A DNA stretch of 47,939 nt from Candidatus Limnocylindrales bacterium (GTDB lineage: Bacteria; Chloroflexota; Limnocylindria; Limnocylindrales; CSP1-4): positions 1 to 47,939 of the forward strand of contig DASSRG010000088.1 in assembly GCA_035701885.1 (NCBI GenBank), written 5' to 3'. Below are positions 13,465 to 45,541 of this stretch, one piece after another (the stretch's first letter is position 1; each line of letters opens with the position of its first letter). A program made the translations under genes and the position numbers. Below the pieces are notes generated by a model. That model ran no database searches. It worked only from the letters and a program-made list of their open reading frames with translations, and was not told the DNA's origin.

Positions 13465-14675
13465 TTGGCGGCGGCCTTCGCCTTCGCCTCGTTCGCGAGC
13501 GCCTTGGAGTGCGTCTTCGACTCCTCGTTGCCCACGAGCGTCTCGTTGTCCTCGCCCCGGATGAACGCCTCGACGCGCTCACGCGCGATGTCGTCGTGGA
13601 TCTGGAGCGGCGGGGACTTCATGAAGTAGCTGGACGGCGCGACGAGCGTGCCCGTCAGGCCACGGTCGAGGCCGATCCGCAGGCAGCGGATGGCGTCGAT
13701 GATCACGCCGGCGCTGTTCGGGCTGTCCCAGACCTCGAGCTTGAGCTCGGCGTTGAGCGGGACGTCACCGAACGTCGTGCCCTCGATCCGGATGTGGCAC
13801 CACTTGCGGTCCTTGAGCCACGGCACGTAGTCCGAGGGGCCGACGTGGATGTCCTCGTCCGCGAGGTCGTAGTCGAGCATCGAGGTGACCGCGTTGGTCT
13901 TCGAGATCTTCTTCGACTCGAGGCGCTCGCGCTCCAGCATGTTCATGAAGTCGGTGTTGCCACCGAAGTTCAGCTGGTACGTGCGGTCGATGCGGACGCC
14001 GCGGTCCATGAACAGGCGGGTCAGCACGCGGTGCGTGATCGTCGCGCCGACCTGGCTCTTGATGTCGTCGCCGATCACCGGGAGGCCCGCGTCGGCGAAC
14101 CGGCGCTGCCAGTACGGCTCGCGGCCGATGAACACCGGGATCGCGTTGATGAACCCGACGCCGGCCTGGAGGGCCTGCTCGACGTACCACTTCGTGGCGT
14201 CCTCGCTGCCCACGGGCAGGTAGGAGACGACGACGTCGACCTCGCGCTCCTTGAGGATGCCGACGACGTCCGCCGTCGGGCCGGGGGCCTTCTCGATGAC
14301 CTGCGACAGGTACTTGCCGATGCCGTCCAGGGTCATGCCGCGCTCGACCTTCACGCCGAGGTGCGGGACGTCCATGAACTTGTAGGTGTTGTTCTGGCCC
14401 GAGAAGATCGCCTCGGAGAGGTCCTTGCCGACCTTCTCCTTGTCGACGTCGAACGCCGCCACGAACTCCACGTCACTGATGTGGTAGTCGCCCAGCTGGA
14501 CGTGCATCAGGCCGGGGACGAAGTCGGTCGGCTTCGCGTTCTCGTAGTAGTAGCGGCCCTGGACGAGGCTGCTCGCGCAGTTGCCGACGCCGACGATCGC
14601 GACGCGGATCTTCTTGCCGCGCGCCTTCGGCGTCGCGGACGTGCCGTTGGTGTTGCTCACGTGCTCCTGCTCCAT
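13461..14675 (-). CDS. ino1: myo-inositol-1-phosphate (inositol-3-phosphate) synthase
   Basis: 404 aa. [57 protein letters not shown] and [16 protein letters not shown] run colinear with mycobacterial Ino1. There is an extra Lys/Ala-rich C-terminal tail of about 30 aa. Confidence 0.93.
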
Positions 14676-17049: not shown

Positions 17050-17320
17050 GACGGTCCGGCCCCCGCCGCATGATGTAGCGCGCCGTCACGACGGTCGCCG
17101 TGAACGACAGCAGCGCGACCGCCAGCCCGGCGTCGATGTAGTAGGAGACGCCGTTCAGGTACGACAGCGTCGCCAGCATGACGATCACGATCGTGCTCAG
17201 GACGTCGAGCGCCAACAGCCGCTGCTGGCTGTCCCGGGCGCGGAGCAGGAGCAGGCCGCCCGCGACGAGCAGCAGCGCAGCCCAGCCGAACGCGACGACG
17301 AGGACGACGTCGGGGATCAC
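17042..17320 (-). CDS. mnhF: Mnh/Mrp antiporter subunit F
   Basis: 92 aa, 3 TM, MnhF/PhaF-like (RLLALDVLSTIVIVMLA..). GTG start. Confidence 0.8.
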   Translation of the reverse strand: MIPDVVLVVAFGWAALLLVAGGLLLLRARDSQQRLLALDVLSTIVIVMLATLSYLNGVSYYIDAGLAVALLSFTATVVTARYIMRRGPDRRD

Positions 17321-17321
17321 G

Positions 17322-17801
17322 TCACGACACCACGTCGCGCTGGAACGTCTCGCGGGCGGCCGCGTGGCGCGCGAGGATCGCGTCCGGATCGCGCGCGTCG
17401 ATGGTGTGGACCACCAGGACGTCCCGGGCGTCGTCGACCGCGACCGGGTACTCGTCGGGTGCCTCGCCGGTCAGGATCCCCCACAGCGCGACGGCCCGGC
17501 GCGACCGGTCGCCGCGGGGGATCTCGATGAAGCCCGGGCTGCCGGTGCCGCGGAGGCAGAACCGGACGACCCGCACCGTGCCGACGCCGATCTCCCAGGC
17601 GGTCACCACGATCATCCGCGCGAGCGACGCGAACCAGCGTCCCCAGGCGGCCGCACCGTGGTGGGCGTCCGAAGGCCTCGCGGCGATGACGAGGACCAGC
17701 GCGAGGGCCGCGCCGATCGCCACGTCGCCCGGGTCGACGCTGGTGAGCACGAGCAGGTAGATGGCGGTGAGCCCCGCCACCCGCAGGAGGATGCCGGTCA
17801 C
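17322..17801 (-). CDS. mnhE: Mnh/Mrp antiporter subunit E
   Basis: 159 aa from GTG 17801, the C-terminal part of track ORF 17322..19142. MnhE-like pattern LLVLTSVDPGDVAIG..VTAWEIGVGTVRVV. GTGA overlap with mnhD. Confidence 0.75.
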   Translation of the reverse strand: MTGILLRVAGLTAIYLLVLTSVDPGDVAIGAALALVLVIAARPSDAHHGAAAWGRWFASLARMIVVTAWEIGVGTVRVVRFCLRGTGSPGFIEIPRGDRSRRAVALWGILTGEAPDEYPVAVDDARDVLVVHTIDARDPDAILARHAAARETFQRDVVS

Positions 17802-19174
17802 CGCAGGACTCCAGGCAGCACGCCCGCGGCGGCGTCGCTCAGCGCGATCAGCGGCCCCGGCCAGATCCCGATCCCCAGGACCAGCGCCCCGAGCATCACC
17901 GGGACGATCCATTGCTGCCAGCGGCTCGGGGCGAGGTTCGCGTCGCCCTCCGGGCGCCACCGCTCGAACTGATAGATCTGGAACGCGTACACGAACGACA
18001 GGAGGCTGCCGAGGAGCACGACCACGACGAGGGCCGGCGAGTCGATGACGGCGCGGAAGACCTCGAGCTTGCCCACGAAGCCGGCCGCCGGGGGGACGCC
18101 CGAGATGCTGAGCGCGCCGAGCGCGAACAGGCCGCCGACGATGACGCCGCGTCGCTCGGTGGTGAGGAACAGCATCGTCTTGTTGGCGGCGTTCACGACC
18201 GTGTACAGGATCGCGGCGGCGATGCCCGCCGGTCCGCCGACCGCGATCGCGATCAGCACGTAGCCCACCTGCCCGATCGCCGAGTAGGCGAGCATCTCGG
18301 CGCCGGTCCGGCGCGAGACGGCGAGGATGCCGCCGTACACGATCGAGGTGGCCCCGATGATCACAAGGATTCCCGCGCCCAGCTCCAGCTCCCGGGGCAG
18401 GAGTCCGGCACCGAACCGGAGCAGCCCGTACGCGCCGATGTTCGCGAGGCTGCCGCTCAGGATCGCCGCGACGGCCGGACGGGCGGACGTGTAGACGGTG
18501 GGCAACCAGAAGTGGAACGGGAACAGCCCCAGCTTGACGCTGAACGCGACGAAGAACCCGACCGCGATGAGGATCGCCGCGTTCGGATCGGCGAGGACCA
18601 TCCGCTCCGCGACGCGCGACATGTCGAGCGTGCCGGTCACGCGGTAGAGCCCGGCGACCGACAGCAGGAACACGAACGTACCCAGGAGGTTCACCGCGGT
18701 GAACACGAGGCCGGCGCCGAGCACGCGAGCAGTGCGCCCGTGGATCGCCAGCACGTACGAGGCGGCGAGGGCGAGCTCGAAGAAGACGTAGAAGTTGAAC
18801 ACGTCCCCGGTGAGGAACGTGCCGTTCAGCCCCAGCGCGAGCAGCACCACGAGGCCGGGGAACTCGCGCTCGGTCGCAGGCTCCGACAGCTGGTGCGTCA
18901 CGGCGGCGGTCAGCATCGCGACCGACAGCAGGGCGAACGTGACGCCCATCGCGTCGGCGCGGAGGGTGATCCCGATGCCCACCGGCCAGCTGCCCGTCGT
19001 CACGACGACCGGCCCGTTGGACAGGACCTCCGCGGTCAGGGCCAGCAGCGCAGCGAGCGTCGCGGCGAGGGCGCAGACGGCGATGGCCCGGACGCGGCGT
19101 CGCCGGCCGTCGACGAACAGGATCGAGACACCGGCGACCCATGGGATGAGCAGGGCGAGCAGGAGGGCCGTCAT
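17798..19174 (-). CDS. mnhD: Mnh/Mrp antiporter subunit D (NuoM/N-like)
   Basis: 458 aa from MTALLLALLIPW. Proton-pumping antiporter-like fold with FNFYVFFELALAASYVL, WLPTVYTSARPAV and AYSAIGQVGYVL. ATGA overlap with mnhC. Confidence 0.85.
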   Translation of the reverse strand: MTALLLALLIPWVAGVSILFVDGRRRRVRAIAVCALAATLAALLALTAEVLSNGPVVVTTGSWPVGIGITLRADAMGVTFALLSVAMLTAAVTHQLSEPATEREFPGLVVLLALGLNGTFLTGDVFNFYVFFELALAASYVLAIHGRTARVLGAGLVFTAVNLLGTFVFLLSVAGLYRVTGTLDMSRVAERMVLADPNAAILIAVGFFVAFSVKLGLFPFHFWLPTVYTSARPAVAAILSGSLANIGAYGLLRFGAGLLPRELELGAGILVIIGATSIVYGGILAVSRRTGAEMLAYSAIGQVGYVLIAIAVGGPAGIAAAILYTVVNAANKTMLFLTTERRGVIVGGLFALGALSISGVPPAAGFVGKLEVFRAVIDSPALVVVVLLGSLLSFVYAFQIYQFERWRPEGDANLAPSRWQQWIVPVMLGALVLGIGIWPGPLIALSDAAAGVLPGVLR

Positions 19175-19569
19175 CGGGCAGACGCCTCCTCGTCCTCGTG
19201 GGCCGGTCCCTCGGCGCGCTCCAGCTGCTCGTCGAGCGCGGCCTCCTCCTGGCCGATGTCGCGAAGGGCCCGCGTCTGGAACGCGATCGCCACCCGCAGC
19301 ACGAGCACCAGCAGCAGCGCGGTCACCGCCATGCCGATCACGATCGCGGTCAGCGCCATCGCCTGGCTCAGCGGGTCGCTGATGGGGCCGTCGGGGAGCG
19401 GGTAGATCGCTGCCGCGCCGCGGTCGAGCGACGCCGCGATGAGCGTCAGGACCGCGGCCTGCGAGATGACGACGACGCCGAGCACCATCCGCACGAGGTC
19501 GCGGTGGAGGACGAGGTAGGCGCCGACCCCGAACAGCATCGCGGCCGCGAGCGCGAACACGAGGTTCAT
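19171..19569 (-). CDS. mnhC: Mnh/Mrp antiporter subunit C (NuoK-like)
   Basis: 132 aa, 3 TM, MNLVFALAAAMLFGVGAYLVLHRDLVRMVLG. ATGA overlap with mnhB. Confidence 0.85.
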   Translation of the reverse strand: MNLVFALAAAMLFGVGAYLVLHRDLVRMVLGVVVISQAAVLTLIAASLDRGAAAIYPLPDGPISDPLSQAMALTAIVIGMAVTALLLVLVLRVAIAFQTRALRDIGQEEAALDEQLERAEGPAHEDEEASAR

Positions 19570-20069
19570 CGCCCGGCCCCATCGGCGGTCGCGGCGTCAT
19601 CGGCCGTCGCCTCTTCGGCCACCGGCTCATCCGTCACGTCGTCGCCCTCGATGAGGCCGGTGAGGTGCCGGACGAGCATCACCAGGCTGCCCGACACGAG
19701 CATGAACAGCCCGACGTCGAACCCGACCGCCGTGGTGAGCTCGAGGGTCCCCACGTGGACCACGGGCTCGCCCGCGAGCGGCAGGTGGGTGAACGGCGGC
19801 TCCCCGATGAGGGTGCTCCCGAACCCGCAGGCGATTGCGATCAGCAAGCCCACGGCGGCGATGACGTGCGCGTGGCGCGCCGGCCGGATCGATCGGTCGC
19901 CGCGCCGCTGGCCAAGCACCACGTACCGGAGCGCGACGGCGAGCGCGACGATCACCCCGGCGCTGAAGCCTTCCCCGGCGTCGGTGTAGCCCTTCACGAT
20001 GAGCGCGGCCGCGAGCATGATCGCGGGCGCGAGCAGGCGGGGCGCGACGACGTCGATGACCGGGCTCAC
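19566..20069 (-). CDS. mnhB: Mnh/Mrp antiporter subunit B
   Basis: 167 aa from GTG 20069, the C-terminal part of track ORF 19566..22022. MnhB-like KGYTDAGEGFSAGVIVALA. GTGA overlap with mnhA. Confidence 0.75.
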   Translation of the reverse strand: MSPVIDVVAPRLLAPAIMLAAALIVKGYTDAGEGFSAGVIVALAVALRYVVLGQRRGDRSIRPARHAHVIAAVGLLIAIACGFGSTLIGEPPFTHLPLAGEPVVHVGTLELTTAVGFDVGLFMLVSGSLVMLVRHLTGLIEGDDVTDEPVAEEATADDAATADGAGR

Positions 20070-22363
20070 GCGGTCTCCCTCCGTCGGAGCAGGCTCACGA
20101 CGCCGAGGATCGCGACGGCGAGCACGGTGATCTCGACCATGGTGTCCAGGCCGCGGAAGTCGGCCAGGATGACCGTGACGACGTCGCCGCCGTGGGCCTC
20201 GGGTGTCCGGCGGATCTGGTCCGCGGCGTCGCTGGCGCCGAGCGGCGGCCGGGACAGGGCCGTCCAGATGACCGCGAACGCGCTGGCGCCGGCGATCACG
20301 CCGGCCGCCACGTTCCGCAGCCGGTGCGGCGCGGCTCCGGCGCCGGCCGGTCGGTGGACGGTCGTGCCGGGCAGGCGCTCGAACACGGCGACGAAGATGA
20401 GCGTCACCACGCTCTCGACGACGAGGGCGACGAGCGCCACGTCCGGCGCCCCCATCACGGCGTACACGCCGGCGAGCGAGAAGCCGACGACGGACAGGGC
20501 GAGCACCGGCCGCAGCCGGCCACGGTCCGTGGCCGCGGTGACGGCTGCGACTACGGCGAGCGCGAGCAGCGCGATCGTGGGCACGTCGGCCGGGACGACC
20601 GGCCCGATCACGTACGCGCCTTCGGTCGGCGTCGCGAGGAACCCGAGCGCGACGAGGGCGCCGGTGGGGACGAGGATCGCGGTGAGGCTGGTGCGGAGGT
20701 CGCGGACCTCGGCGCGGTGGGCCCGGTCGGAGGCGCGGTTCAGGGCGAGGAGGAAACCGCTGTACAGCCGGCGCGGGCCGAGGCGTTCGCCCAGGCCGTC
20801 GACCGCGGCGAAGATCCGCGGCCGGAGGCGCGCGACGACGAGCAGCAGCGCGCCGAGTGCGTACGCGGCGACGGCCATCAGGTTCGCGGGCCGGGCGTCC
20901 AGGTGGTACGCGGGATCGGCATGCACGGGCGCCCCGTGCGTCACCGCGGCGGCGGCCTCGGCGAGCCGTGCGAACGGATCGACCGCCACCCCGCCGATGA
21001 CGGACAGCGCCCCGAGCACCACCACCGGCGCGACGAGGAGCACCGGCAGGGGCGCCGCGGGGCTGCGCCGCGGCCCGACGAAGATCGCGAGCCAGAACCG
21101 GCCGAGGTAGGCAACGGTCAGGCCCGCACCCAGGACCGCGAGCGCGGTCACAACGGGTCCCCGGCTTGTCGCGGCGATGAAGTACAGCTCGTCCTTGAAG
21201 AACCCGAGGGTCAGGGGCAGGGCAGCGAGCGATGCGGCGCACACCAGGCTTGCGATCGCGAGCGTGGGCAGGTCGCGCGCCAGGCCCCCGAGGCGCGACA
21301 GCCGCGACTCGCCGGTGGATTCGGTCACCGCCCCGGCCGTCATGAACAACGCGCTCTTGGCGATGGCGTGCGCGACGACGTACAGCGCGGCCGCGACCGC
21401 CCCGTCGGGCCCGCCGATCCCGTACAGCACGACGACGTACCCGTACTGCGAGATCGTCGAGTAGGCGAGGACCTGCTTGAGCTCGTCCTGCGCGAGGGCC
21501 AGCAACCCGCCGACGGCGATCGACGCGAAGCCGACGACGAGGAGGACGTCGAGGACGGCAGGGTTCAGCGCGAGCAGCGGGTGGACCCGGCCGATCACGA
21601 GGACGCCTGCGGCGACCATCGCGGCAGAGTGCAGATACGCGGACACGGGCGTCGGGGCGGCCATCGCCCGTGGGAGCCAGAAGTGGAGCGGCACCTGGGC
21701 GCTCTTGGCGAGCGCGGCGACGGCGATGAGCAGCGCGGCCGTGGTCGTGGCCGGTCCGGGCGCCGCGGACCGGAACAGGGCTTCGAGCGACGTGGTGCCG
21801 TAGACGGCCTGGAGCAGCACCGCGCCGATGAGCAGCGCGACGGCGCTGACGCCGGTGACGAGGAGCGCCATCAGCGCCGATCCGCGGGCCTCGACGCGGT
21901 GCCTGTCGAAGCCGATCAGGAAGTAGGACGCGACCGCCGTGATGTCGAAGAACACGAACAGCACGATCAGGTCCTGGGCGGTCGCGAGGCCGATCATCGC
22001 GAGCATGAACAGCGTCATCCACGGCCAGAACCGCCTGGCCTCGGATGGCGGCCGATCCTCGTGGGCGAGGTGCCGCGGGAGGTACGCCGCACCGTACGCG
22101 AAGACCAGGAGGCCGATGCCGCTCGCGAGCAGGGCGTAGAGGGCGGACAGCCCGTCGAAGCCAAGCTCGAGCCGGATCCCGAGGGACGGTGCCCAGGGAA
22201 GGCTGAACCGCCAGCCGCCGCTCGGCGCGCCGTTCGCCACGCCCACGAGGGTCAGCGCGAACGCGACCGCGGCGATCCCGACCGACGTCCAGGCGAGCAC
22301 CGACGCCCTGCCGCCGGACGCCGACCCGCCGCTCGCGTGCGCTCCGCCGGCTCGCGGCGTCAT
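20066..22363 (-). CDS. mnhA: Mnh/Mrp antiporter subunit A (NuoL-like with MnhB-like C-terminal extension)
   Basis: NuoL-type motifs LGFDGLSALYALL, FVFFDITAVASYFLIGF, HFWLPRAMAAPTPVSAYLHSAAMV and AYSTISQYGYVV. The start is uncertain: ATG 22363 gives 765 aa, and the upstream in-frame start at 22495 gives 809 aa. Confidence 0.85.
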   Translation of the reverse strand: MTPRAGGAHASGGSASGGRASVLAWTSVGIAAVAFALTLVGVANGAPSGGWRFSLPWAPSLGIRLELGFDGLSALYALLASGIGLLVFAYGAAYLPRHLAHEDRPPSEARRFWPWMTLFMLAMIGLATAQDLIVLFVFFDITAVASYFLIGFDRHRVEARGSALMALLVTGVSAVALLIGAVLLQAVYGTTSLEALFRSAAPGPATTTAALLIAVAALAKSAQVPLHFWLPRAMAAPTPVSAYLHSAAMVAAGVLVIGRVHPLLALNPAVLDVLLVVGFASIAVGGLLALAQDELKQVLAYSTISQYGYVVVLYGIGGPDGAVAAALYVVAHAIAKSALFMTAGAVTESTGESRLSRLGGLARDLPTLAIASLVCAASLAALPLTLGFFKDELYFIAATSRGPVVTALAVLGAGLTVAYLGRFWLAIFVGPRRSPAAPLPVLLVAPVVVLGALSVIGGVAVDPFARLAEAAAAVTHGAPVHADPAYHLDARPANLMAVAAYALGALLLVVARLRPRIFAAVDGLGERLGPRRLYSGFLLALNRASDRAHRAEVRDLRTSLTAILVPTGALVALGFLATPTEGAYVIGPVVPADVPTIALLALAVVAAVTAATDRGRLRPVLALSVVGFSLAGVYAVMGAPDVALVALVVESVVTLIFVAVFERLPGTTVHRPAGAGAAPHRLRNVAAGVIAGASAFAVIWTALSRPPLGASDAADQIRRTPEAHGGDVVTVILADFRGLDTMVEITVLAVAILGVVSLLRRRETA

Positions 22364-22565
22364 CGGCGCGGAAGGGTCGTGGTGAGGGGCGACCTGGGCA
22401 GGGATCGGTCCTCCGGGTGCGGCGAGAGCCGGGCGGGCATCCGCCCGTGGCAGCGACCCGTCACAGACCGTAGACCGCCCGGCCCCGCGCGGCAAGGACC
22501 GTGCTCGTGGCGGATTGGGCGGTCGGGCCGCCGGTCACGATCGTATCCGGGAACCGCCGGGGACC

Positions 22566-33222: not shown

Positions 33223-33555
33223 CTACTGCCGCATCGCGTCGTACTCGTCGACCAGCGGAGTCTTCCGGTTGCGGAAGATCGCGATGACGATCGCGAGGCC
33301 GACGGTCGCCTCGGCCGCGGCCGCGGCCATGACGATCAGCGCGATCACCGACGCGTCCACGTTGAGCGACGTCGAGAACGCTCCGAACGCGATGATCGAC
33401 AGGTTGACCGCGTTGAGCATCAGCTCGATCGACATCAGCATCGAGATCGCGTTCCGGCGGGCGAGGAAGCCGAACCCGCCGATCGCGAACAGGACGCCGG
33501 ACAGGACGAGATAGGCGTCCAGCGACTGCGACAGGCCGTCGAGCGCGCTCAGCAC
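33223..33555 (-). CDS. nuoK: NADH-quinone oxidoreductase subunit K
   Basis: 110 aa from GTG 33555, the C-terminal part of track ORF 33223..34053. [41 protein letters not shown]. Confidence 0.85.
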
Positions 33556-34091
33556 TACTCGTTCCCCCCGCGCTCGCGCTTGGCGAGGAACACGCCGCCG
33601 ATGACCGCGGCGAGGAGCAGGACGCTGACCACCTCGAACGCGAGGATGTAGTTGCTGAACAGCTCGGTGGCGAGCGCCGTGGCGGACGTCGCGATGCGCG
33701 TGCCGGTCGCGGGCCAGTCGGTCGCGACGACCGTGATCCCGATCAGCAGCGCGAGCACCGCCGCGGCGATCGCGGCGGGCAGCGCCTGGGTCTGGAACAC
33801 CAGGGCGTTCGGCCCCGCCTTCGTCTGGGTCAGCATGATCGCGAACAGGATCAGGACGCTGATCGCGCCGATGTAGACGAGCACCTGCGCGGCGGCCACG
33901 ACGGTCGCCCCGGCGAGCACGTACAACCCGGCGAGCGCGGCGAAGCACACGATCATCGCCAGCCCGCAGCGGATGATGTCGCGCATCGTGACGACGAGCA
34001 GCGCCGCGCCGATCATGACGGCCGCGAGGCCCATGAACAGCAGGTCGTCCCATCCGAACCCGAGGAACGGGATCGTGTCAGGCAGCGTCAC
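33555..34091 (-). CDS. nuoJ: NADH-quinone oxidoreductase subunit J
   Basis: 178 aa with a GTG start. NuoJ pattern [22 protein letters not shown]. Confidence 0.85.
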
Positions 34092-34100: not shown

Positions 34101-36793
<2,693 letters not shown>

Positions 36794-36794
<1 letters not shown>

Positions 36795-38131
36795 CAGCGG
36801 GATCCCGGTGTCGCGGCGGCACCGACGGCGATGGGGTGACAGACCCCGGCCGGACAGGTGCTGCGGAGGAGGTGGTCGTCGAGCTCGGAACGGAAGTATC
36901 GCATCCCGCTCGTGAACGGAAGGGTGGCCAGGCGCTCGTGCTCGCACAGGCCGGAGGCGGCGACGTCGTGGGCGAGGTCGGCCATCAGCGCCATGTCGGT
37001 GGGCTTCGGGCGGCCCGTCGCGACGCGGTCGCCGATCTCGTACAGCCGCTGCAGGCCGATCCGACACGGGATCGTCTTGCCGCACGCCTCGTCGGCCGAG
37101 AACTTCGTCAGCAGGCGGGCGAGGTCGACGACGCAGGCGCGGTCGTCCGCGACGACGATCGACCCCGAGCCGACGTGCGCCCCCGCCTCGCGGAGCGAGT
37201 CGAACTCGTAGGGCGTGTCGATCAGGTCGGCCGGCAGCAGGCCCCCGGTCGGCCCGCCGACGAGGATCGCCTTGAGGCTCCGTGCGCCGACGCCGCCGGT
37301 GAGGCGGAGCAGCTCCCGCAGGGGGGTCCCGAGCGGCACCTCGGCGATGCCGCCGCCTTCGGGGCCGCGGAGCTGGACGAGGATCGTGCCGGGGCTCGTC
37401 TTCGTCCCGATCGCGCCGAACGCGGCCGCGCCCTCACGGATGATCCACGGGACGGCGGCGAGGGTCTGGACGTTGTTGACGACCGTCGGCTTCTCGAACA
37501 GGCCGCGCTCGGTGGGGTACGGCGGACGCTGCTCGGGCTGGCCGCGGCGGCCGGCGAGCGCCTTGAGCAGGACCGTCTCCTCGCCCAGCATGTAGGCGCC
37601 CTGGACCGGGCGGACCGTCATCGTGATCCGGTAGCCGGAGCCCAGCACGTCGTCGCCGAGGAACCCGGCCTCCTCCGCCGCGAGGACCGCGCCCTCGAGC
37701 AACGTGACGAGCGCGGTGTCCTCCGCACGGACGGCGAGGATCGCCTCCGTCGCGCCGACGGCGAATGCCGCGATCGCGAGGCCCTCGATGACGGCCCACG
37801 GGTCTGCCGCCATCAACGTCGCGTCGGTCCGGACGGCCGGGTCCGCGCCGTAACCGTTCGCGACCACGTAGCGCTGGGTCGCCGGCATGTTGGCCGCCGC
37901 GCGCCACTTCTCGCCGGTCGGATACCCGCCGCCGCCGCGGCCGCGGAGGCCGGACGACGCGATGGTGGCGATCGTGCCGGTCGGCCCGAGGTCGCGGACG
38001 GCGTGACGCAGGGCCTCGAACGCGCCGGCGCGGATCGCGGCGTCGAGGTCCGACGGGTCGGACGCGAGCGCGGCGGCGCGTCCGGTCAGTACCGCGGGCC
38101 ACTCCTTCGGGGTCTGGAGGAAGGTCGCCAT
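36794..38131 (-). CDS. nuoF: NADH-quinone oxidoreductase subunit F (FMN/NADH-binding, N3 cluster)
   Basis: 445 aa from MATFLQTP. GLRGRGGGGYPTGEKW, YMLGEETVLLKALAGRRGQPEQRPPYP, ACGKTIPCRIG and ..GLCEHERLA. TGATG overlaps at both ends. Confidence 0.88.
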
Positions 38132-38793
38132 CAGCTCGCCTGCCCCGCGTACCCGAGCGATGCCTCGAGCGCCGAGCGGTACGACTGCTCGATCGCGGCG
38201 TGCGCCTGCCCGGCGGGCGGCAGGGACTCGATCGCCGGCGGCTCGAACCGCAGGTGCCGGTAGTAGCTCGCGGTCCCGTAGATGTACGCGTACCAGGCGC
38301 CGGTCACGCGGCTGATGTGCTTGAGCGCGCCGACCGGCAGGTAGCCGTACTCGGCCTGCGTCTCCTCCAGCATCGGGAGGAGCTCCTTGGGGTCGTAGTC
38401 GTGGCGCTCCATGATCTCGTCCAGGGCGCTCGTATCCACGGGGTCGAACCGCCGGAACGCCGCATCCGCGACCGGACGACCCGACCGGCGGATCGCCGAC
38501 TCCTCGCGCCGCTCGCCGTACGTCTCGGGCGGGCCCCAGTGGACGTGGAACCGGCCCTTGGTGTCGATGCCGCCCATGTCGATGCACTCGATCGGGCAGG
38601 CCTGGGCGCACTGGAAGCACGTCTCGCACTTGAGCGTGCCGTACTCGTCGTAGAGCAGCTGGAGGCGGCCGCGGAACTTCGGCGCGACGTCGGCGCGGAC
38701 CTCCGGGTAGCGGATCGTGGCCTTGGGCTGGAAGAACCGCTTCAGGGTCAGGCCCATGCCGCGGACGATGCCCATGCCGGGAACGAGGCTCAT
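38131..38793 (-). CDS. Chimeric subunit: NuoI N-terminal half (one 4Fe-4S motif) fused to the NuoE N-terminal helical domain (no 2Fe-2S domain)
   Basis: 220 aa. GLTLKRFFQPKATIRYPE..KCETCFQCAQACPIECID aligns with NuoI/Nqo9. LDEIMERHDYDPKELLPMLEETQAEYGYLPVGALKHISRVTGAWYAYIYGTASYYRHLRFEPP aligns with the NuoE/Nqo2 N terminus. Only 5 Cys are present, and there is no second ferredoxin motif or thioredoxin-like domain. Confidence 0.8.
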   Translation of the reverse strand: MSLVPGMGIVRGMGLTLKRFFQPKATIRYPEVRADVAPKFRGRLQLLYDEYGTLKCETCFQCAQACPIECIDMGGIDTKGRFHVHWGPPETYGERREESAIRRSGRPVADAAFRRFDPVDTSALDEIMERHDYDPKELLPMLEETQAEYGYLPVGALKHISRVTGAWYAYIYGTASYYRHLRFEPPAIESLPPAGQAHAAIEQSYRSALEASLGYAGQAS

Positions 38794-38797: not shown

Positions 38798-40135
38798 TCA
38801 CACCAGCTGCCTGACGACGACGATCGCCGCCGCGGTGATGAACAGGTTGAGGAGCGCCGCGGGCAGCATCCATTTCCAGGCGAAGCCCATCAACTGGTCG
38901 ATCCGGACGCGGGGGAGCGTGCCGCGCATCCAGACGAAGACGTACACGAACAGGAACGACTTGAGGAAGAACCAGACGAGGCCGGCGACCCAGTCGAGGC
39001 CGACGTACGCGATGCCGAACACGAGCCCGATGGCCACGACGTTGAACACGAGGAAGCCGAGGATCAGGGCCTGCCACGCGGGCCGGTTGTTCGTGGTCAG
39101 CCAGAACGGCAGCGCGAACAGGAGCGTCAGCACGACCGGCGCGATCGCGATCAGCAGCAGCAGCCCGATCCCCAGCGAGCCGGGGTCCAGCCCCAGGTCG
39201 ACGTGCGGGAACGGGAACGGCGCGTTCCAGGCCCCGAAGTAGAACGTGACCATGAGCGCCGAGATGATGAACACGTTCACGTACTCGGCGAAGAACAGGA
39301 AGCCGAACCGCATGCCCGAGTACTCGGTGGCGAACCCGGCGACGATCTCGGAGTCGGCCTCGGTCAGGTCGAACGGGGTGCGGTTCGCCTCGGCGGTGGC
39401 GGCGATGAAAAAGATCAGCGCGCCGAGCGGCTGGCGGAACACGAACCAGTCCCAGAACCCGCCTGCCTGCTGCTCGGCGACGTCGTAGACGCTCATCGTG
39501 CCTGCGAGCAGGATCAGCCCGACCACGCTGAGCGTCAGCGGGATCTCGTAGCTCACGACCTGGGCCGCGGACCGGAGGCCACCCAGCAGCGAGTACTTGT
39601 TGAAGCTCGACCAGCCGGCCATCAGCAGCCCGACGACCGTCATCCCGCCGACGGCGAACAGGTACAGGATCCCGATGTTGAGGTCCTGGCCGACGAGCCC
39701 GGGCCCGAACGGGATGACGAGGAACGTCATCACCGCCGTCAGGAACACGACCACCGGCGCCCAGGTGAAGACGACGGAGTCCGCGCCCGTCGGCGTGAAG
39801 TCCTCCTTCATGAGGACCTTGAGCCCGTGGACCACCGACAGGAGCGAGCCGGCGGGACCGACGCGATCCGGTCCGACCCGAAGGTTCATCAGCGCGATGA
39901 CCTTCATCTCCATGTAGATGATGATGAACGCGGCCGGGACGCTGAACAGCAGGATGGCCGTGACTGCGACGACGAACCGGACGATGTCGATGTTCGCCGA
40001 CAGCAGGTCGACGAGGAACGGCCCGAGGAACAGCGCGAACAGCACCGTGACGATCGGGCCGACGACGAGCACGAGCAGCGCGAGCGGCAGCAGCACGCGC
40101 CCGAGCACGGTCATGTTGCTCCAGGCGCGGCCCAT
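38798..40135 (-). CDS. nuoH: NADH-quinone oxidoreductase subunit H (long form with extra TM segments)
   Basis: 445 aa from MGRAWSNM (alternative ATG at 40114). MNLRVGPDRVGPAGSLL, AATAEANRTPFDLTEADSEIVAGFATEYSGMRFG and RGTLPRVRIDQLM. Confidence 0.88.
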   Translation of the reverse strand: MGRAWSNMTVLGRVLLPLALLVLVVGPIVTVLFALFLGPFLVDLLSANIDIVRFVVAVTAILLFSVPAAFIIIYMEMKVIALMNLRVGPDRVGPAGSLLSVVHGLKVLMKEDFTPTGADSVVFTWAPVVVFLTAVMTFLVIPFGPGLVGQDLNIGILYLFAVGGMTVVGLLMAGWSSFNKYSLLGGLRSAAQVVSYEIPLTLSVVGLILLAGTMSVYDVAEQQAGGFWDWFVFRQPLGALIFFIAATAEANRTPFDLTEADSEIVAGFATEYSGMRFGFLFFAEYVNVFIISALMVTFYFGAWNAPFPFPHVDLGLDPGSLGIGLLLLIAIAPVVLTLLFALPFWLTTNNRPAWQALILGFLVFNVVAIGLVFGIAYVGLDWVAGLVWFFLKSFLFVYVFVWMRGTLPRVRIDQLMGFAWKWMLPAALLNLFITAAAIVVVRQLV

Positions 40136-40140: not shown

Positions 40141-41379
40141 TCACTTGTCGACACCGCCCATGATCGGGTCGAGGCTCGCCATGACGGCCATGGTGTCCGC
40201 CACCAGGTTGTCCTTCATCAGCAGCGGGACGAGCTGCAGCGCGATGAACGAGGGGTCGTGGATCCGCATCCGGAACGGCTGGTCGGTGCCGTCCGAGATC
40301 GCGTAGGTCGCGTACATCCCGCGCGGCCCCTCGACCGCCGCGAACGCCCGGCCGGGGCGGGGCCGCAGCAGGCGCGGCAGCTTCGCCATGACCGGGCCGT
40401 CGGGCATGTTGTGGAGGCACTGGTCGATGATCCGGAGGCTCTGCTTCACCTCGTCGACGCGGAGCAGGTAGCGGTCCAGGCAGTCACCGCCGTTGTGGCC
40501 GCGGGTCGGCACGTCGAACTCGAGCTCGGGGTAGACCGAGTACGGATGGGCCCGGCGGACGTCGTACGGCGTGCCCGTGGCGCGCAGGTTCGGCCCGGTC
40601 ACGGCCATGCGCAGCGCGGTCTCGCGGTCGAGCCGGCCGAGGTCGCGCATCCGGCGGACGAAGATCTCGTTCTCGTTGAGCAGCTGGGTGTTCGCCTCGT
40701 GCTGGGCGGAGGCGCGGGTCATCCAGTCGCCCAGGCGCGACATGAACTCGTGGTTGATGTCGCCGTTGACGCCGCCGATCCGGAAGTAGTTGAACAGCAG
40801 TCGCTGCCCGGTGATCGAGGCGAGCATCTCGGCGATCTCGTCCCGCTCGATGAAGCTCCACAGGATCGGCGTCAGGCCGCCCAGGTCCAGCGCCATCCAG
40901 CCCATGAACAGCGCGTGCGACAGGACGCGGTTCAGCTCGCCCGTGAGGACCCGGATGTACTCGGCGCGGCGCGGGACCTCGACGTCGAGCAGGTGCTCGA
41001 ACGCCATGACCGGCGACCACTCGCAGAACAGCGAGCTGATGTATTCGAGCGGGTCCACCTGGCTGTTGATGTGGTGGTAGTCCGCGTTCTCGCACAGCTT
41101 CTCGACGCCGCGGTGGAGGTAGCCCAGCACCGGGTCGAGGTCCACGACCTGCTCGCCGTTGATCTTGAGGACCACCCGGAGCACCCCGTGGGTCGACGGG
41201 TGCTGCGGGCCCATGTTGATGAACATCTCGCCGTCGCCGAGCGTGTAGAACTCGGCCTCGCGCTCGGTGCGCGGCGGGTACGGCGGGATGGCCTCGAACT
41301 GCCCGATCGAGTCGTCGAGCAGGATCCGCGGATCGTCGGCCGACGGGTGCTGGTGGGTGGGCGTGTGCTGTGCCGTCAT
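40141..41379 (-). CDS. nuoD: NADH-quinone oxidoreductase subunit D
   Basis: 412 aa from MTAQHTP. NMGPQHPSTHGVLR, GYLHRGVEKL and EGPRGMYATYAISDG..PFRMRIHDPSF. Confidence 0.9.
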   Translation of the reverse strand: MTAQHTPTHQHPSADDPRILLDDSIGQFEAIPPYPPRTEREAEFYTLGDGEMFINMGPQHPSTHGVLRVVLKINGEQVVDLDPVLGYLHRGVEKLCENADYHHINSQVDPLEYISSLFCEWSPVMAFEHLLDVEVPRRAEYIRVLTGELNRVLSHALFMGWMALDLGGLTPILWSFIERDEIAEMLASITGQRLLFNYFRIGGVNGDINHEFMSRLGDWMTRASAQHEANTQLLNENEIFVRRMRDLGRLDRETALRMAVTGPNLRATGTPYDVRRAHPYSVYPELEFDVPTRGHNGGDCLDRYLLRVDEVKQSLRIIDQCLHNMPDGPVMAKLPRLLRPRPGRAFAAVEGPRGMYATYAISDGTDQPFRMRIHDPSFIALQLVPLLMKDNLVADTMAVMASLDPIMGGVDK

Positions 41380-41381
41380 CG

Positions 41382-41930
41382 TCAGGCCTTCACGGTGCGG
41401 CGGACCACGCGGTCCGTCGCCTGGGTGGGCACGTGCGTCTGCTCCATGTGCCGGACGCCACCGCCCGGCGACCGCGCGGCGTCGTCGGCGAGGTAGAAGT
41501 CCTTGCGCAGCGGGAAGCTCGTGTAGTCGGGCGGCATGTAGATGCGCCGCAGGTCGCGGTTGCCCTCGAAGATGATGCCGAACATGTCGTAGGCCTCGCG
41601 CTCCATCCACTCGGCCCCGGGCCACAGGCCGGTGAGGGACGGGACCCGCGGATCATCGCGGGGCATGCCGTCGGCGATGACGCGCAGCCAGTCGGGCGTG
41701 GTGGCGGACCACAGGTGGTACACGACCTGCATGTGGGTGCCGGTGTCGACGCCGGCGAGGTCGGCGAGCAGCTGGAAGTCCAGCGTCGGGTCGTCGTGGA
41801 GCTCGCGCATGACCTCGGGGACGTCGGACGGCGCGATCCGGATCTCGGTCTGGTCGTGACGCTGGCGTACGGGGCCGGTCAGGCGCTCACCGAACCGCGC
41901 CTCGAGGCGCTTTCGCAGCTGGCGATCCAT
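41382..41930 (-). CDS. nuoC: NADH-quinone oxidoreductase subunit C
   Basis: 182 aa with VPSLTGLWPGAEWMEREAYDMFGIIFEGNRDLRRI. Confidence 0.88.
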   Translation of the reverse strand: MDRQLRKRLEARFGERLTGPVRQRHDQTEIRIAPSDVPEVMRELHDDPTLDFQLLADLAGVDTGTHMQVVYHLWSATTPDWLRVIADGMPRDDPRVPSLTGLWPGAEWMEREAYDMFGIIFEGNRDLRRIYMPPDYTSFPLRKDFYLADDAARSPGGGVRHMEQTHVPTQATDRVVRRTVKA

Positions 41931-41933
41931 CGG

Positions 41934-42695
41934 CTAGATGTCCTGCGGGACGTTGGGCCCGATGGCGCGTTCCTGGAACTGCCCGCGGCGCTCCTTGACC
42001 AGCTGCTGGAGCTTCATCATCCCGTAGATCAGGCCCTCCGGCCGCGGCGGGCAGCCGGGGACGTAGACGTCGACCGGCATGACGCGGTCGATGCCCTCGA
42101 TCGTGCTGTACGACCGCTTGTACCGGCCGCCCGAGCACGTGCAGTCGCCCATCGCGACGCACCACTTCGGCTCCGGCATCTGCTCCCACAGGCGGATGAG
42201 CGGCCCGGCCATCTTCGTCGTGAGCGTCCCGGCCACGATCAGCACGTCCGCCTGGCGGGGCGAGGCGCGGAACGGGAACATGCCCCAGCGGTCCATGTCG
42301 TTGCGCGACGTCGCCGCGGACATCATCTCCATCGCGCAGCACGCGAGGCCCGACAGCAGCGGCCACAGGCTGTTCATCCGGATGAGGTCGAGGACCAGGT
42401 CCGCCTTGGTCGGGACCACCTCCAGCGCGCCCCAGCGCGCGTCGTCGCGCAGGACGAGGTCGGAGCCCTCGAGGTCCTTCATGTGGAGGTGCTCGCTCTC
42501 GCGACCGCCGGCGTAGGCCGTGGAGCTGGGCGAGGTCCACAGGGTGTTGGGGACGACGATCGGCTGGGTGAGGTCGCGCGGCGGCGTCGTGACGAGCGCG
42601 GACGGCGCCTGACCGGGCTGGTCGGAGCCCATCTGGGTGGCGTTGTCCGGGCCCACGCCGAGGGCCTTCGCGCCTGCGTCGTTCACTGGCGCCAT
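41934..42695 (-). CDS. nuoB: NADH-quinone oxidoreductase subunit B (N2 cluster)
   Basis: [34 protein letters not shown] and VPGCPPRPE. Start at ATG 42695 gives 253 aa with a low-complexity N-terminal extension. The alternative ATG 42482 gives a canonical-size protein. Confidence 0.85.
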
Positions 42696-43054
42696 GACAG
42701 GACTCCCTTGCGCCACGCATAGCCGAGGCCGAACAGCAGGATGCCCACGAACACGAGCATCGACAGGAACAGGCGGCCGATCGAGTCGTCCGGCGTGGTG
42801 GCGAAGATCAGGGCCCACAGGAAGATGAAGATCACCTCGATGTCGAAGGCGACGAACATCAGCGCGTAGATGTAGAAGCTGATGCCGAACCGGGCATGGG
42901 TGTCGCCGTACGTGTCGATGCCCGACTCGTACGGGTAGCCCTTGTGCGCGTCGCCCTTGACGCGATGGGAGATCAGCCAGGCGAGGCCGATCGTGAGGAA
43001 GACGAAGGAGACGCCGGCGAAGGCGTATCCGACGACATACCAGATCCCGGTCAC
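42683..43054 (-). CDS. nuoA: NADH-quinone oxidoreductase subunit A
   Basis: 123 aa with a GTG start preceded by [44 protein letters not shown]. Confidence 0.88.
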
Positions 43055-43217: not shown

Positions 43218-44426
43218 TCAGCCGGCGCCCTCCCGGATGCGCTGGAGGCCGTCGAGCCGCGCCTCCGCCGGGAGCCCGCGACCGAACACGAGGACCCGGA
43301 ACGCGCCCATGCCGCGGGGGTCGAGGAGTCTCGCGAGCGCGCTCCGTAGCTCGAGCGCATCCTGGAGCCCGGCACCCTCGCGGCGGAGGAACGCCTGGGC
43401 CAGCTCGCCTCCGCCCAGCCGCGCGACGAGCTCGGCCTGGGTCGTCTCGCCGACCGGCTCGAGGCCCGCCCGGGCGGCGGCCGCGCGGACCGCGGCCAGG
43501 TCCACGGTCGCGGTCAGGTCCTGCCGGCCGACGTGGGCGAACGGGTCCGCGCCGACGGCGTGCGCGGCGAACGCACGGAGCGTCCCGTTCGGGCGGCGCG
43601 CGGGGTCGTGGAGCGCGGCCGGCTCGTCGGCGTAGTCCACGAGGATCGCGACGCCCTGCGCCAGGTGCCGCGTCGCCTCCTCGAGCCAGCCGTCGATGGC
43701 GAGGCAGACCTCCGTCACCTGGCCGTCGGCGAGGGTGACGCCCTCGTCGTGGAGGCGCTGCGCGAGGGCCGGCGTGGTGGGCTCGGCTTCGACCGTCGAG
43801 AAGCGCCCGCCGTCGTCGACGCCGACGAGGAGCTCCGCGATGCCGCCGGGCGCCGCAGGGCGGCCGATGACGCGGTGGACGGGCAGCGCGTCGAGCACCT
43901 CGTTCGCGACGACCGCGCCGGCCTCGCCGTTCCTCGGCCCGTCGTCCGTCAGTGCGTGCTCCAGCCCGAGGGCCGTCAGCCGCTCGCGGATCGCGACGAG
44001 CCGGGCGGGCTCCACCTCGACCGGGCGATAGCGGAGGGCCGCGGCGAGCGGTGAGCCGAGGTCGCGCAGCCCGCCGAGCAGCCCCGCCGCGAGCGCCCCC
44101 GTCCCGGCGCCAGGCTCGGTCACCGTGAACGGGTCCGGACGTCCGAGCGCGTCCCATGCCTGCTCGACCAGCCTGCCCATGACCGCGCCGAAGATCGGGT
44201 GCGCCTCCGGCGCCGTGAGGAAGTCGCCGCGCCGGCCGGGTCCCGGGTCCGGCCGGCGGTAGTAGCCGTGGCCGGGCTCGTACAGCGCGCGGTCCATGAA
44301 CCGCGCGAACGTGATCGGGCCGGACGCGCGGATCTCCGCACGGATCGAGGCCGCCAGCGCCTCGTCCTCGCCGACCTCGTCGGGGTCCGGGAGTGGCTGC
44401 CGGACGAGCCCGGGCTCAATGTCCAT
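43218..44426 (-). CDS. MidA/NDUFAF7-family (DUF185) class I SAM-dependent methyltransferase
   Basis: 402 aa from MDIEPGL, the C-terminal part of track ORF 43218..44627. ITFARFMDRALYEPGHGYY, GDFLTAPEAHPIFG, VTEPGAGTGALA, ANEVLDALPVH and RGMGAFRVLVF. Confidence 0.8.
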   Translation of the reverse strand: MDIEPGLVRQPLPDPDEVGEDEALAASIRAEIRASGPITFARFMDRALYEPGHGYYRRPDPGPGRRGDFLTAPEAHPIFGAVMGRLVEQAWDALGRPDPFTVTEPGAGTGALAAGLLGGLRDLGSPLAAALRYRPVEVEPARLVAIRERLTALGLEHALTDDGPRNGEAGAVVANEVLDALPVHRVIGRPAAPGGIAELLVGVDDGGRFSTVEAEPTTPALAQRLHDEGVTLADGQVTEVCLAIDGWLEEATRHLAQGVAILVDYADEPAALHDPARRPNGTLRAFAAHAVGADPFAHVGRQDLTATVDLAAVRAAAARAGLEPVGETTQAELVARLGGGELAQAFLRREGAGLQDALELRSALARLLDPRGMGAFRVLVFGRGLPAEARLDGLQRIREGAG

Positions 44427-44431
44427 CGGGC

Positions 44432-45541
44432 CTACTCCTCGTCGGACGCGTCGTTGCGCGCGACGCCGAGCGCGAGGACGGCCCCGGGTCCGACCAGCGA
44501 GTGCGCACCGAGCAGGATCGGGACGGGTGCGGCCGCGGCGGAGGCCGTCAGCGCACGGAGCCACGGGTCCTGGACGCGGTCGGCGAGGAGCAGGTCGCTC
44601 GCGAAGCGATCCTCGGGCGGGGGCCACGCCTGTTCGTCCGCGCCCGTCCGCGCGGCCATGAGCACCCGAGTGTCGACGAGCGCTCCGTCCGCGTGCGCGG
44701 CGACGATCTCGCCGAGGGACTCGGGTCCGCCGGCGTCGAGCAGCCGGGCGAGGAGGCTGCGCGGCGGGCGCCGGTTCCGGCGTCCACGCTGGGCGGCGAG
44801 CGAGGCGGTCCGCAGGCCGCGCTCCTCGATCAGCACGCGCGTGCGCGCGCGCGAGAGCCGCTCGACCGCCCGCAGGTCGTCGCCGTTGACGCGTCCTGTG
44901 AGCAGGAGCTCGCCTGCGGGGTCGGCGGCAAGCGTGCGGAGGGCCGCGAGCCGCTGCCGCACGGGCTCGCCATCGGCGGCCGGCAGGCGCGGCAGACCCG
45001 CCACGCCGTCCCCGGCGCCGTCGAGCAGCATGACGTCGAGCGGCGAGTCCACGTCGAACGCGAGGTCTCGCCGCCCCGCGATGTCCTGCACCGGGACGCC
45101 GGCCACCTCCGAGAGCCAGCGGGGGAGCGCGTTGTCGGTGGCGAGGTCGGGCGGGAGGTCCCGGAGCGCCCTCGCCGCGTCCGCGATCGCCAGCACATCC
45201 GCGGAGTACGCGTTGTTCGCGAGCGCGGCCGGCCGTTCGGCCCGCGCCGCCTCGACGAATCGCCGCCGGTCCGCCTCCGTGGCCAGCGGCATCGCACCCG
45301 CGCCGAGGACGACGACGCCGCCCGTGACGTGATCGCGGACGAGCCGGCGCAGCCGCTCCCCGAACGGCAGGTCATCCGGTGGCTCGCGGTGGACGACCAC
45401 GGCATCCGCGGCCGCGGCGGAGAACCCGGCGGCGTGCCGCACGGCGAGCGCGCCACGCACGGCATCGAGGTGGGCCTCCAGCGGATGCGCGCCGGACGGC
45501 GCGGCGGGGGCGAGAATGAGCACCGTGACTGGCCTCGACAC
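44432..45541 (-). CDS. Conserved-looking hypothetical protein (weak MobA/CofC-like nucleotidyltransferase-fold N-domain)
   Basis: 369-aa ORF with ordinary protein-like composition. VLILAP.., VVVLGAGAMPL.. and LAFDVDSPLDVMLL are reminiscent of NTP-transferase folds. No firm family assignment. Confidence 0.5.
   Translation of the reverse strand: MSRPVTVLILAPAAPSGAHPLEAHLDAVRGALAVRHAAGFSAAAADAVVVHREPPDDLPFGERLRRLVRDHVTGGVVVLGAGAMPLATEADRRRFVEAARAERPAALANNAYSADVLAIADAARALRDLPPDLATDNALPRWLSEVAGVPVQDIAGRRDLAFDVDSPLDVMLLDGAGDGVAGLPRLPAADGEPVRQRLAALRTLAADPAGELLLTGRVNGDDLRAVERLSRARTRVLIEERGLRTASLAAQRGRRNRRPPRSLLARLLDAGGPESLGEIVAAHADGALVDTRVLMAARTGADEQAWPPPEDRFASDLLLADRVQDPWLRALTASAAAAPVPILLGAHSLVGPGAVLALGVARNDASDEE

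Follow-up and report, generated by a model that had tools for sequence, protein, structure and literature searches.

A putative complex I of Limnocylindrales with NuoI apparently divided between the two ends of an Nfn-type cassette

INTRODUCTION

In the usual description of complex I, its 14 core subunits are a fixed set and its input module accepts NADH only. The nuo operon considered here lies on contig DASSRG010000088.1 of Candidatus Limnocylindrales bacterium (Chloroflexota; GenBank assembly GCA_035701885.1), a stretch of 47,939 nucleotides (nt) that was analyzed as a whole and is called the window below. At the position of nuoI it carries a cassette of three genes, coding for a protein of 220 amino acids (aa), a NuoF-like protein and an 897-aa NfnA-like protein, and the two outer proteins appear to hold one half of NuoI each. 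We regard this as a complex I whose input module is unusual and one of whose core subunits is naturally split; no published description of it was found. Literature searches on split, truncated or fused NuoI, on complex I or NADH respiration in Limnocylindria, and on nuo genes associated with GltD returned nothing relevant.

THE nuo OPERON AND ITS CASSETTE

All genes of the operon are on the minus strand. The genes nuoA, nuoB, nuoC, and nuoD (40141-43054) are followed by nuoH (38798-40135) and, after a gap of 4 nt, by the 220-aa gene (38131-38793). Then come the gene of a 445-aa NuoF-like flavin mononucleotide (FMN) subunit (36794-38131), the 897-aa gene (34101-36794), nuoJ (33555-34091), and nuoK, L, M, and N down to about 28093. 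Genes nuoA-D, H, and J-N are thus all present in one operon, and NuoB has the CC...C...CP ligands of cluster N2. The 220-aa gene was assigned from its open reading frame (ORF), Pfam and NCBIfam profiles and orthologues, the NuoF-like gene from profiles and an orthologue alignment, and the 897-aa gene from Pfam, NCBIfam and a PDB search. The TGA stop of the 220-aa gene (38131-38133) and the ATG of the NuoF-like gene share an ATGA overlap, and the stop of the NuoF-like gene overlaps the ATG of the 897-aa gene in the same way. The three cassette genes, linked by these overlaps, are predicted to be translationally coupled.

The 220-aa ORF has a third-position GC of 0.97, which is typical of real genes in this window (GC 72%). 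A protein database search with its product returned 2897 homologues, and the best 120 of these measure 205-232 aa and share 75-96% identity with the query. Where names are given, they read "ferredoxin," "hypothetical protein," or "NAD(P)H-dependent oxidoreductase subunit E." In a genome scan the protein was encoded by at least 475 stretches from Chloroflexota (Limnocylindrales), so the architecture that the first-pass annotation had proposed to look for in other genomes is common there. Eighty loci were retained from these stretches and are the basis of all statements on synteny; apart from a few bins with other labels, their source is Chloroflexota/Limnocylindrales-type metagenome-assembled genomes. 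Of 76 Limnocylindrales orthologues, all 76 have the five cysteines and P67 of the 220-aa protein. When all six frames were scanned for CxxCxxCxxxC and for NuoE-type 2Fe-2S cysteine patterns, neither a second ferredoxin motif nor a NuoE-type motif was found near the gene, and no frameshift that would restore a full-length NuoI or NuoE came to light. On these grounds the 220-aa protein is taken as a real, conserved gene product, neither an artefact nor the result of a frameshift.

The order nuoD-nuoH-[220 aa]-nuoF-like-[897 aa]-nuoJ is kept in nearly all of the 80 loci, wherever the contig is long enough. At locus L043 (12000-17000), the nuoF-like gene is followed by neither the 897-aa gene nor nuoJ. 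Locus L063 (5500-10000) has no upstream nuoH, and a GltD-like protein is encoded there separately; its C-terminal domain is of the 2x[4Fe-4S] type and ends in ...CPFDAITMERFELQ.

DOMAINS OF THE 220-AA PROTEIN

The protein had been read in the first pass as a chimera of NuoI and NuoE, and this is borne out by profiles of both types and by solved chains. Residues 1-95 (38509-38793) correspond to the N-terminal half of NuoI, as judged from NuoI models and the Mycobacterium smegmatis chain 8e9g_I, and comprise the N-terminal helix, a single CxxCxxCxxxCP motif and the inter-motif loop up to ETYGERRE. The motif (C56, C59, C62, C66, P67) lies at 38596-38628; together with C70 its cysteines are the only ones in the translation, which agrees with the earlier observation of five cysteines in one block. 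The NCBIfam NuoI models match residues 8-82 with their first halves only (NF004536, positions 12-87 of 180; TIGR01971, positions 1-63 of 121). In the PDB search residues 9-73 align with solved TYKY/NuoI chains, and the protein aligns to residues 8-90 of M. smegmatis NuoI. Against the NuoI family model it scores 49.6 bits, below the curated cut-off of 113.05. Mean identity of this half among orthologues is 86%.

A connector follows at residues 76-118 (DTKGRFHVHWGPPETYGERREESAIRRSGRP...; 38440-38568), overlapping the end of the NuoI-like part. It has a mean identity of 82% and many invariant columns, and its R95 is invariant even in distant relatives; such conservation indicates that it is not a floppy linker.

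Residues 119-188 (38230-38439) form a four-helix N-terminal domain of the NuoE/NfnC/HydC type (the anchor domain), recognized by PF01257, AlphaFold2 and Foldseek. Pfam 2Fe-2S_thioredx (PF01257) matches residues 125-186 with model positions 2-63 of 145, at 37.2 bits against a gathering score of 24.8, and residues 117-188 align with solved NfnC, StnA, HydC, FdsG, and NuoE chains. In AlphaFold2 predictions of the 220-aa protein alone, residues 121-180 are a confident four-helix domain (predicted local distance difference test, pLDDT, 74-93), and the NuoI half has low confidence (pLDDT 33-61). Foldseek superposes the helical domain on HydC, NfnC, StnA, and FdsG at a root-mean-square deviation of 0.6-2 Å. 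The target-normalized template modeling (TM)-scores of 0.89-0.95 were obtained against 9n5v_C and 9bov_C, library chains of only 64 and 67 residues, i.e., of the N-terminal domain alone. The identification with NuoE stands for this helical domain but has to be narrowed: in sequence the domain is nearer to NfnC, with E about 1e-9, while matches to canonical NuoE have E 0.02 or higher, and the module as a whole is closer to Bfu-type NfnABC/StnABC than to canonical NuoE, NuoF, and NuoG.

The last residues, 189-220 (38134-38229), are a weakly conserved tail (mean identity 43%) with one predicted helix. In an alignment with full-length relatives it occupies the place of the 2Fe-2S thioredoxin-like domain. 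The 220-aa protein has no CxxxxC...CxxxC 2Fe-2S motif of that domain, since the ORF stops before it, and the ATGA overlap with the NuoF-like gene leaves no space for such a domain after the ORF. The N1a-type cluster domain is absent, as had been noted before. In solved NfnABC and HydABC structures the NuoE-type N-terminal domain docks on the NuoF-like subunit (PMC11829005), so the first-pass view that the NuoF-docking part is retained holds. By analogy with these structures, the kept part would be the stable anchor and the lost part the mobile cluster domain.

THE SECOND HALF OF NuoI

The first-pass annotation had described the second 4Fe-4S motif as lacking. This is correct for the 220-aa protein, but not for the enzyme, because the C-terminus of the 897-aa protein (34101-36794) has it. 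Residues 766-858 of that protein (34221-34499) correspond to the C-terminal half of NuoI with its C-terminal helix, as identified by TIGR01971 and NuoI/TYKY chains. The motif C778, C781, C784, C788, P789 is at 34431-34463 and is invariant in 59 of 59 orthologues. The tail matches TIGR01971 positions 71-116 of 121, carries the FE.S..REE signature and aligns to residues 84-129 of M. smegmatis NuoI. Its best single-stretch PDB matches are second halves of NuoI/TYKY chains, e.g., residues 161-209 of 9f5x_G (37.5 bits). With a mean identity of 92% for this half, both NuoI halves are among the best conserved segments. When they are rejoined in silico, they give one TIGR01971 match over positions 1-116 of 121 with 102.2 bits; scored apart, they reach 51.9 bits (N-terminal half, positions 1-64) and 46.0 bits (C-terminal half).

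The halves also hold the nuoI slot, the N-terminal one directly after nuoH and the C-terminal one directly before nuoJ. A reading of the tail as part of the NfnA fold or as a generic polyferredoxin repeat was rejected. FwdF and MvhB lead the matches only through repeated weak hits, and the best single stretch and the FE.S..REE signature are both specific to NuoI.

In the 2x[4Fe-4S] ferredoxin fold, each cluster is held by three cysteines of one CxxCxxCxxxCP motif and by the Cys-Pro cysteine of the other. In the whole window CxxCxxCxxxC occurs exactly four times, namely three times in the 897-aa protein and once in the 220-aa protein. Two of the former three belong to a HydA/NuoG-type 2x[4Fe-4S] domain, which leaves one orphan motif per protein, and because of the cross-ligation the two orphan motifs need each other. 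NuoI thus appears to be split across two polypeptides, not truncated. We infer that the enzyme retains the second motif, which the 897-aa protein would contribute in trans through its C-terminus.

THE NfnA-LIKE AND NuoF-LIKE PARTNERS

The 897-aa protein begins with a 2Fe-2S domain and the start of a His-cluster domain, into which order a GltD/NfnL-type domain for flavin adenine dinucleotide (FAD) and NADPH, with clusters of its own, is inserted; the 2x[4Fe-4S] domain and the C-terminal half of NuoI follow. Its ferredoxin-type motifs are C703-C713, C746-C756, and then the third, C778-C788-P789. Pfam recognizes Fer2_4, Fer4_20, Pyr_redox_2, and Fer4, and all cysteines are invariant among orthologues. 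The motifs GxGxxG, GGGxxxxD, and YRR in the sequence are those which we take to form a GltD-type FAD site. The Pfam and NCBIfam profiles gave no match to a molybdopterin domain (Fdh/NuoG-like) in this protein, which ends in the NuoI half. The best solved relatives are Caldicellulosiruptor NfnA (9bov_A, E 3.6e-166, residues 55-789), Sporomusa StnC (8oh5_C), and Thermococcus NfnA (9n5u_A). The GltD/NfnL-type FAD-NADPH domain of this neighbor was overlooked in the first pass, and it changes the probable function of the module. After the NuoI half the protein has a low-complexity (GN)n(GH)n tail (GANGNGNGNGNGNGHGHGHG...; approximately 34104-34220, minus strand), with 25% identity among orthologues.

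The NuoF-like protein scores 348 bits against NfnB (9bov_B) and 210-265 bits against canonical NuoF chains. Of the domains of BfuB, it is missing the thioredoxin-like one at the N-terminus and the 2x[4Fe-4S] one at the C-terminus. For each of the three cassette proteins, the nearest solved relatives are subunits of NfnABC/StnABC, with 9bov_C and 9n5u_C matching the NuoE-like domain.

RELATIVES AND A GRADED SERIES

A sensitive search with the 220-aa protein found full-length two-domain relatives at 27-51% identity. The representative library also gave many matches to high-GC metagenome reads translated with frameshifts, and these were disregarded. Distant lineages (loci L082, L085, and L087) have this split too, at 27-32% identity and with different domain arrangements, and in each of them the last cassette protein ends in a NuoI-like C-terminal tail.

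Locus L087 is a 1.8-Mb contig, and a relative in its cluster is named Thermoleophilia bacterium. Its order is nuoABCDH, a 253-aa protein of half NuoI and full NuoE (four Cys), a 636-aa BfuB-like protein, an 824-aa NfnA-like protein with the NuoI tail, and nuoJKLMN. The 636-aa protein has the complete BfuB architecture of thioredoxin-like 2Fe-2S domain, NuoF and 2x[4Fe-4S]. In L082 the NuoF-like protein (1048 aa) includes the GltD domain as a fusion, and a 265-aa HoxU-like protein bears the NuoI tail. L085 (a Chloroflexi bin, GCA_016190715.1) has a 215-aa short form, 28% identical to the window protein, and a 793-aa partner with the NuoI tail. There (6481-14281), the nuoABCDH genes and the genes of the 215-aa form, the NuoF-like protein and the 793-aa protein are not followed by nuoJKLMN; genes for a flavin reductase, a GYD protein, a ferredoxin and a 2-oxoacid:ferredoxin oxidoreductase lie downstream instead. 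Protein P0157 (282 aa, labeled Candidatus Limnocylindria) keeps the thioredoxin-like domain with two of the four cysteines.

These forms make up a graded series, from full NuoE with full BfuB (L087) over a thioredoxin-like domain with two of four cysteines (P0157) to the short form (the window and L085). Because the split is found in distant relatives with fuller forms, it is taken to be old and shared, the form in the window being the end of a series of losses. The short form in L085 appears to have arisen independently of that in the window.

COMPARISON WITH KNOWN SYSTEMS

The likeness to NuoI/Nqo9/TYKY (NDUFS8) extends to the N-terminal region and first motif in the 220-aa protein, the second motif and FE.S..REE tail in the 897-aa protein, the slot between nuoH and nuoJ, and the end-to-end match of the rejoined halves to the family model. 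Canonical NuoI, however, has both motifs in one polypeptide, whereas here the fold would extend over two, each half being fused to another subunit and the cassette lying between them; the halves and the rejoined sequence all score under the curated cut-off. With NuoE/Nqo2/NDUFV2 and BfuC (NfnC, StnA, HydC), the 220-aa protein shares the four-helix N-terminal domain that anchors to a NuoF-like partner. It differs from them in having neither the thioredoxin-like domain nor any of the four 2Fe-2S cysteines, and in the position of the helical domain C-terminal to a half-NuoI.

NfnABC/StnABC (PDB 9BOV, 9BP5, 9N5U, 8OH5), bifurcating NADH-dependent ferredoxin:NADP+ oxidoreductases of the Bfu type, have the same three-subunit logic, and the 2Fe-2S / NfnL(GltD)-FAD / 2x[4Fe-4S] architecture of NfnA is found over residues 55-789 of the 897-aa protein. 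Unlike NfnA, the window protein has the C-terminal half of NuoI in place of the Fdh-like C-terminal domain, and the module has neither the C1 cluster nor the B3-B5 domains. NfnABC is soluble, whereas the genes in the window lie inside a nuo operon, and their products are presumably membrane-bound and linked to quinone. The bifurcating BfuBC core of the Bfu family (NfnABC, StnABC, HydABC), defined by FMN with B1, C1 and extra B-site domains (PMC9304861; PMC11829005), is incomplete in the window.

Nuo-Bfu is a predicted complex I in which a BfuABC module is used instead of NuoEFG; it occurs in Geobacter and other phyla in a 14-subunit A-N cluster (Schut et al., 2022, PMC9304861). It resembles the present operon in having a Bfu-derived electron-input module in a complex I gene cluster. 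It differs in that it was described from other phyla, and the version in the window is without the bifurcating core. The text of that paper does not mention NuoI, a split or Actinobacteria, and has no Nfn-type (FAD/NADPH) BfuA in a Nuo cluster. Among small NuoG homologues of the HoxEFU/HoxU type, the 265-aa protein of L082 is similar in its 2Fe-2S cluster, His-ligated cluster and 2x[4Fe-4S] domain, followed by the NuoI half. Unlike HoxEFU, it has no hydrogenase, it is fused to half-NuoI, and the GltD domain in L082 is on the NuoF-like subunit.

PROPOSED ASSEMBLY AND ELECTRON PATH

With good confidence, though short of certainty, the NuoI halves can be read as fused to the two ends of an Nfn-derived cassette, through which an NAD(P)H-input module is tied to complex I. 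The cassette would descend from a Bfu-type NfnABC/StnABC transhydrogenase. Its three parts (the NuoE-like domain, the NuoF-like FMN subunit and the 2Fe-2S/GltD-FAD/ferredoxin subunit) would have been inserted into nuoI, and in the operon, as read from the window and the retained loci, it would take the place of canonical NuoE, NuoF, and NuoG. The 220-aa and 897-aa polypeptides would meet and build clusters N6a and N6b at their interface, the 220-aa protein giving half of the ligands of both NuoI clusters. Such an assembly would tie both ends of the cassette covalently to the quinone module. The tie may stand in for the large C-terminal domain of NuoG in canonical complex I, which is absent here in the domain profiles. 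The Fdh-like NfnA domain that is touched by the anchor is the very domain replaced by the NuoI half, which makes a short covalent tether geometrically plausible. The covalent adaptor between the NuoI position and NuoF proposed in the first pass is therefore a reasonable role for the docking domain; as the only role of the protein it is disfavored, for reasons given below.

In NfnA, electrons pass from FAD over A7-A6-A3-A2-A1 to the FMN subunit, and the A2-A4-A5 branch is left over as a dead end (PMC11829005). The NuoI half in the 897-aa protein follows the second ferredoxin motif, where A5 would be, so that the former dead end would become the obvious exit to N2 in NuoB. NADH would enter at the NuoF-like FMN and NADPH at the GltD-type FAD, and both inputs would converge on the Fe-S chain of the 897-aa subunit. 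From there the ferredoxin-type branch would lead electrons to the split NuoI clusters, and these would hand them on to N2 in NuoB and finally to quinone.

The minimal bifurcation site is B1-FMN-C1, with ferredoxin served via B3/B4 (PMC11829005), and non-bifurcating homologues are defined by the absence of B2-B5 (PMC9304861). Since the enzyme in the window is without C1 and the extra NuoF-like domains, the enzyme of Limnocylindrales most likely has two nucleotide sites and works as a proton-pumping NAD(P)H:quinone oxidoreductase that does not bifurcate.

A wider proposal is put forward tentatively, as a possibility rather than an expectation. The operon may represent an undescribed lineage of complex I, with an Nfn/Stn cassette in nuoI, NuoI rebuilt from two polypeptides and the dead end of NfnA turned into the wire to quinone. 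In Limnocylindrales the enzyme might pump protons and pass electrons of both NADH and NADPH into the respiratory chain, and in the full-core relatives labeled Thermoleophilia it might be a single membrane-bound enzyme that connects NADPH, NAD(H), ferredoxin and quinone.

Several observations weigh against the reading of a two-input module joined to complex I through a split NuoI. The rejoined NuoI, with 102.2 bits, stays slightly under the cut-off of 113.05; the neighborhood differs in two of the 80 loci (L043 and L063); C70 is invariant in Limnocylindrales and could be an alternative fourth ligand for a single cluster; and the altered nucleotide motif and Thr/Ser ligand of the NuoF-like protein, described in the next section, may mean that NADH/FMN entry is modified or inactive.

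ALTERNATIVE EXPLANATIONS

A variant in which the GltD-type FAD is the only working entry has to be kept as a serious rival, although it is rather improbable. The NuoF-like and NuoE-like parts would then be structural remnants, and the enzyme would be a complex I specific for NADPH or for the GltD site. It would fit the degree of conservation, the 897-aa protein being the best conserved of the operon (mean identity 85%) and the NuoF-like protein among the least (72%), as well as the loss of the NuoE-type cluster and of the extra BfuB domains. The N3 motif of the NuoF-like protein reads EACGKTIPC instead of ESCGKCxPC, i.e., its second cysteine (residue 353; 37073-37075, minus strand) is Thr. In Limnocylindrales orthologues this position has Thr in 35 and Ser in 35 cases, Cys being found in distant relatives only, and in L083 and L084 a different ligand, the third N3 cysteine, is replaced by Gly. 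The nucleotide/flavin-site motif NADEGEPG is replaced by NGYGADPA (residues 92-99; 37835-37858, minus strand). However, Ser or Thr can ligate an Fe-S cluster, and the FMN/NADH site retains its GLRGRGGxGFP, GEET, and NNVQTLA motifs. The variant NGYGADP shows strong conservation of its own (Y94 in 69 of 70 sequences, D97 and P98 in 70 of 70), which points to a modified rather than a dead site; it is also present in the short-form relatives L083 and L085, and not in the full-Bfu relatives L082 and L087.

It is unlikely that the half-NuoI by itself holds no more than one 4Fe-4S cluster (C56, C59, C62 with C66 or C70), with the second cluster gone and the protein serving only as an adaptor between the NuoI position and NuoF. 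The 220-aa polypeptide has one motif only, and C70 is as invariant in the 76 Limnocylindrales orthologues as the motif itself. Some distant relatives with the same split, however, have Ala at the C70 position, and an invariant, complementary orphan motif with the identity of a NuoI C-terminal half is encoded two genes downstream. A lone CxxCxxCxxxCP half makes no closed ferredoxin fold, in keeping with the low AlphaFold2 confidence of the N-terminal half alone, and without the second cluster the chain to N2 would be broken.

That the module in the window is still a bifurcating or confurcating Bfu enzyme, coupling NADPH, NAD and ferredoxin to quinone reduction, is very improbable. Its closest solved relatives NfnABC and StnABC do bifurcate, and L087 keeps the full NuoE with four cysteines and the 636-aa BfuB with thioredoxin-like and 2x[4Fe-4S] domains. 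In the window, however, the C1 2Fe-2S domain is absent and the NuoF-like protein has lost its N- and C-terminal cluster domains, so that neither the minimal site B1-FMN-C1 nor the ferredoxin route via B3/B4 (PMC11829005) is complete, and a lack of B2-B5 is what defines non-bifurcating homologues (PMC9304861).

That the ORF is a pseudogene, a frameshift product of nuoI or nuoE, or an artefact of assembly, for which nothing speaks except the unusual architecture, is practically excluded by the repetition of length and architecture in at least 475 genome stretches and 2897 proteins, the invariant cysteines, the third-position GC, the translational coupling, and the six-frame scan, which was empty of a second motif near the gene and, together with the conservation among homologues, led to its rejection.

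IMPLICATIONS

If the assembly is as proposed, a core Fe-S subunit of complex I is naturally split and both of its clusters would be ligated over a subunit interface. The split would serve to graft a different dehydrogenase module, with an NADPH-type flavin site, onto the enzyme. Chloroflexota that are abundant in soil and freshwater could then respire NADPH directly. The series from a full bifurcating core over degenerate ligands to the short form would document a stepwise loss of bifurcation from a membrane complex. A naturally split 2x[4Fe-4S] ferredoxin would also be an example relevant to protein engineering. Annotation pipelines currently give the 220-aa protein the names "ferredoxin," "hypothetical," or "NAD(P)H-dependent oxidoreductase subunit E," and for these genomes they would list nuoI as absent.

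OTHER FEATURES OF THE OPERON AND THE WINDOW

NuoH in this operon has 445 aa, compared with 321-375 aa in L082, L085, and L087. The extra sequence consists of approximately 40 N-terminal hydrophobic residues and a hydrophobic insertion of approximately 75 aa before the last conserved helices (about 38981-39217). The nuoB gene (41934-42695, minus strand) would code for 253 aa if its start is the ATG at 42695, compared with 184 aa for NuoB of L087, the excess being N-terminal. Directly upstream of nuoA is a gene for a Methyltransf_28 (PF02636) protein (43218-44627, minus strand). This is the NDUFAF7/MidA family, whose eukaryotic members methylate the NuoD homologue in complex I assembly.

Outside the operon, the window has an Mrp-type antiporter cluster (15850-22495, minus strand). 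Among its products are an MrpA-like protein of 809 aa, which carries MbhD and MbhE domains, and a protein of 399 aa in which an MnhG subunit is fused to tandem universal stress protein domains. A 1769-aa protein (4002-9311, plus strand) has protein O-mannosyltransferase (PMT) domains in its C-terminal third only, and a TMEM260-like O-mannosyltransferase is encoded at 821-2425 on the minus strand.

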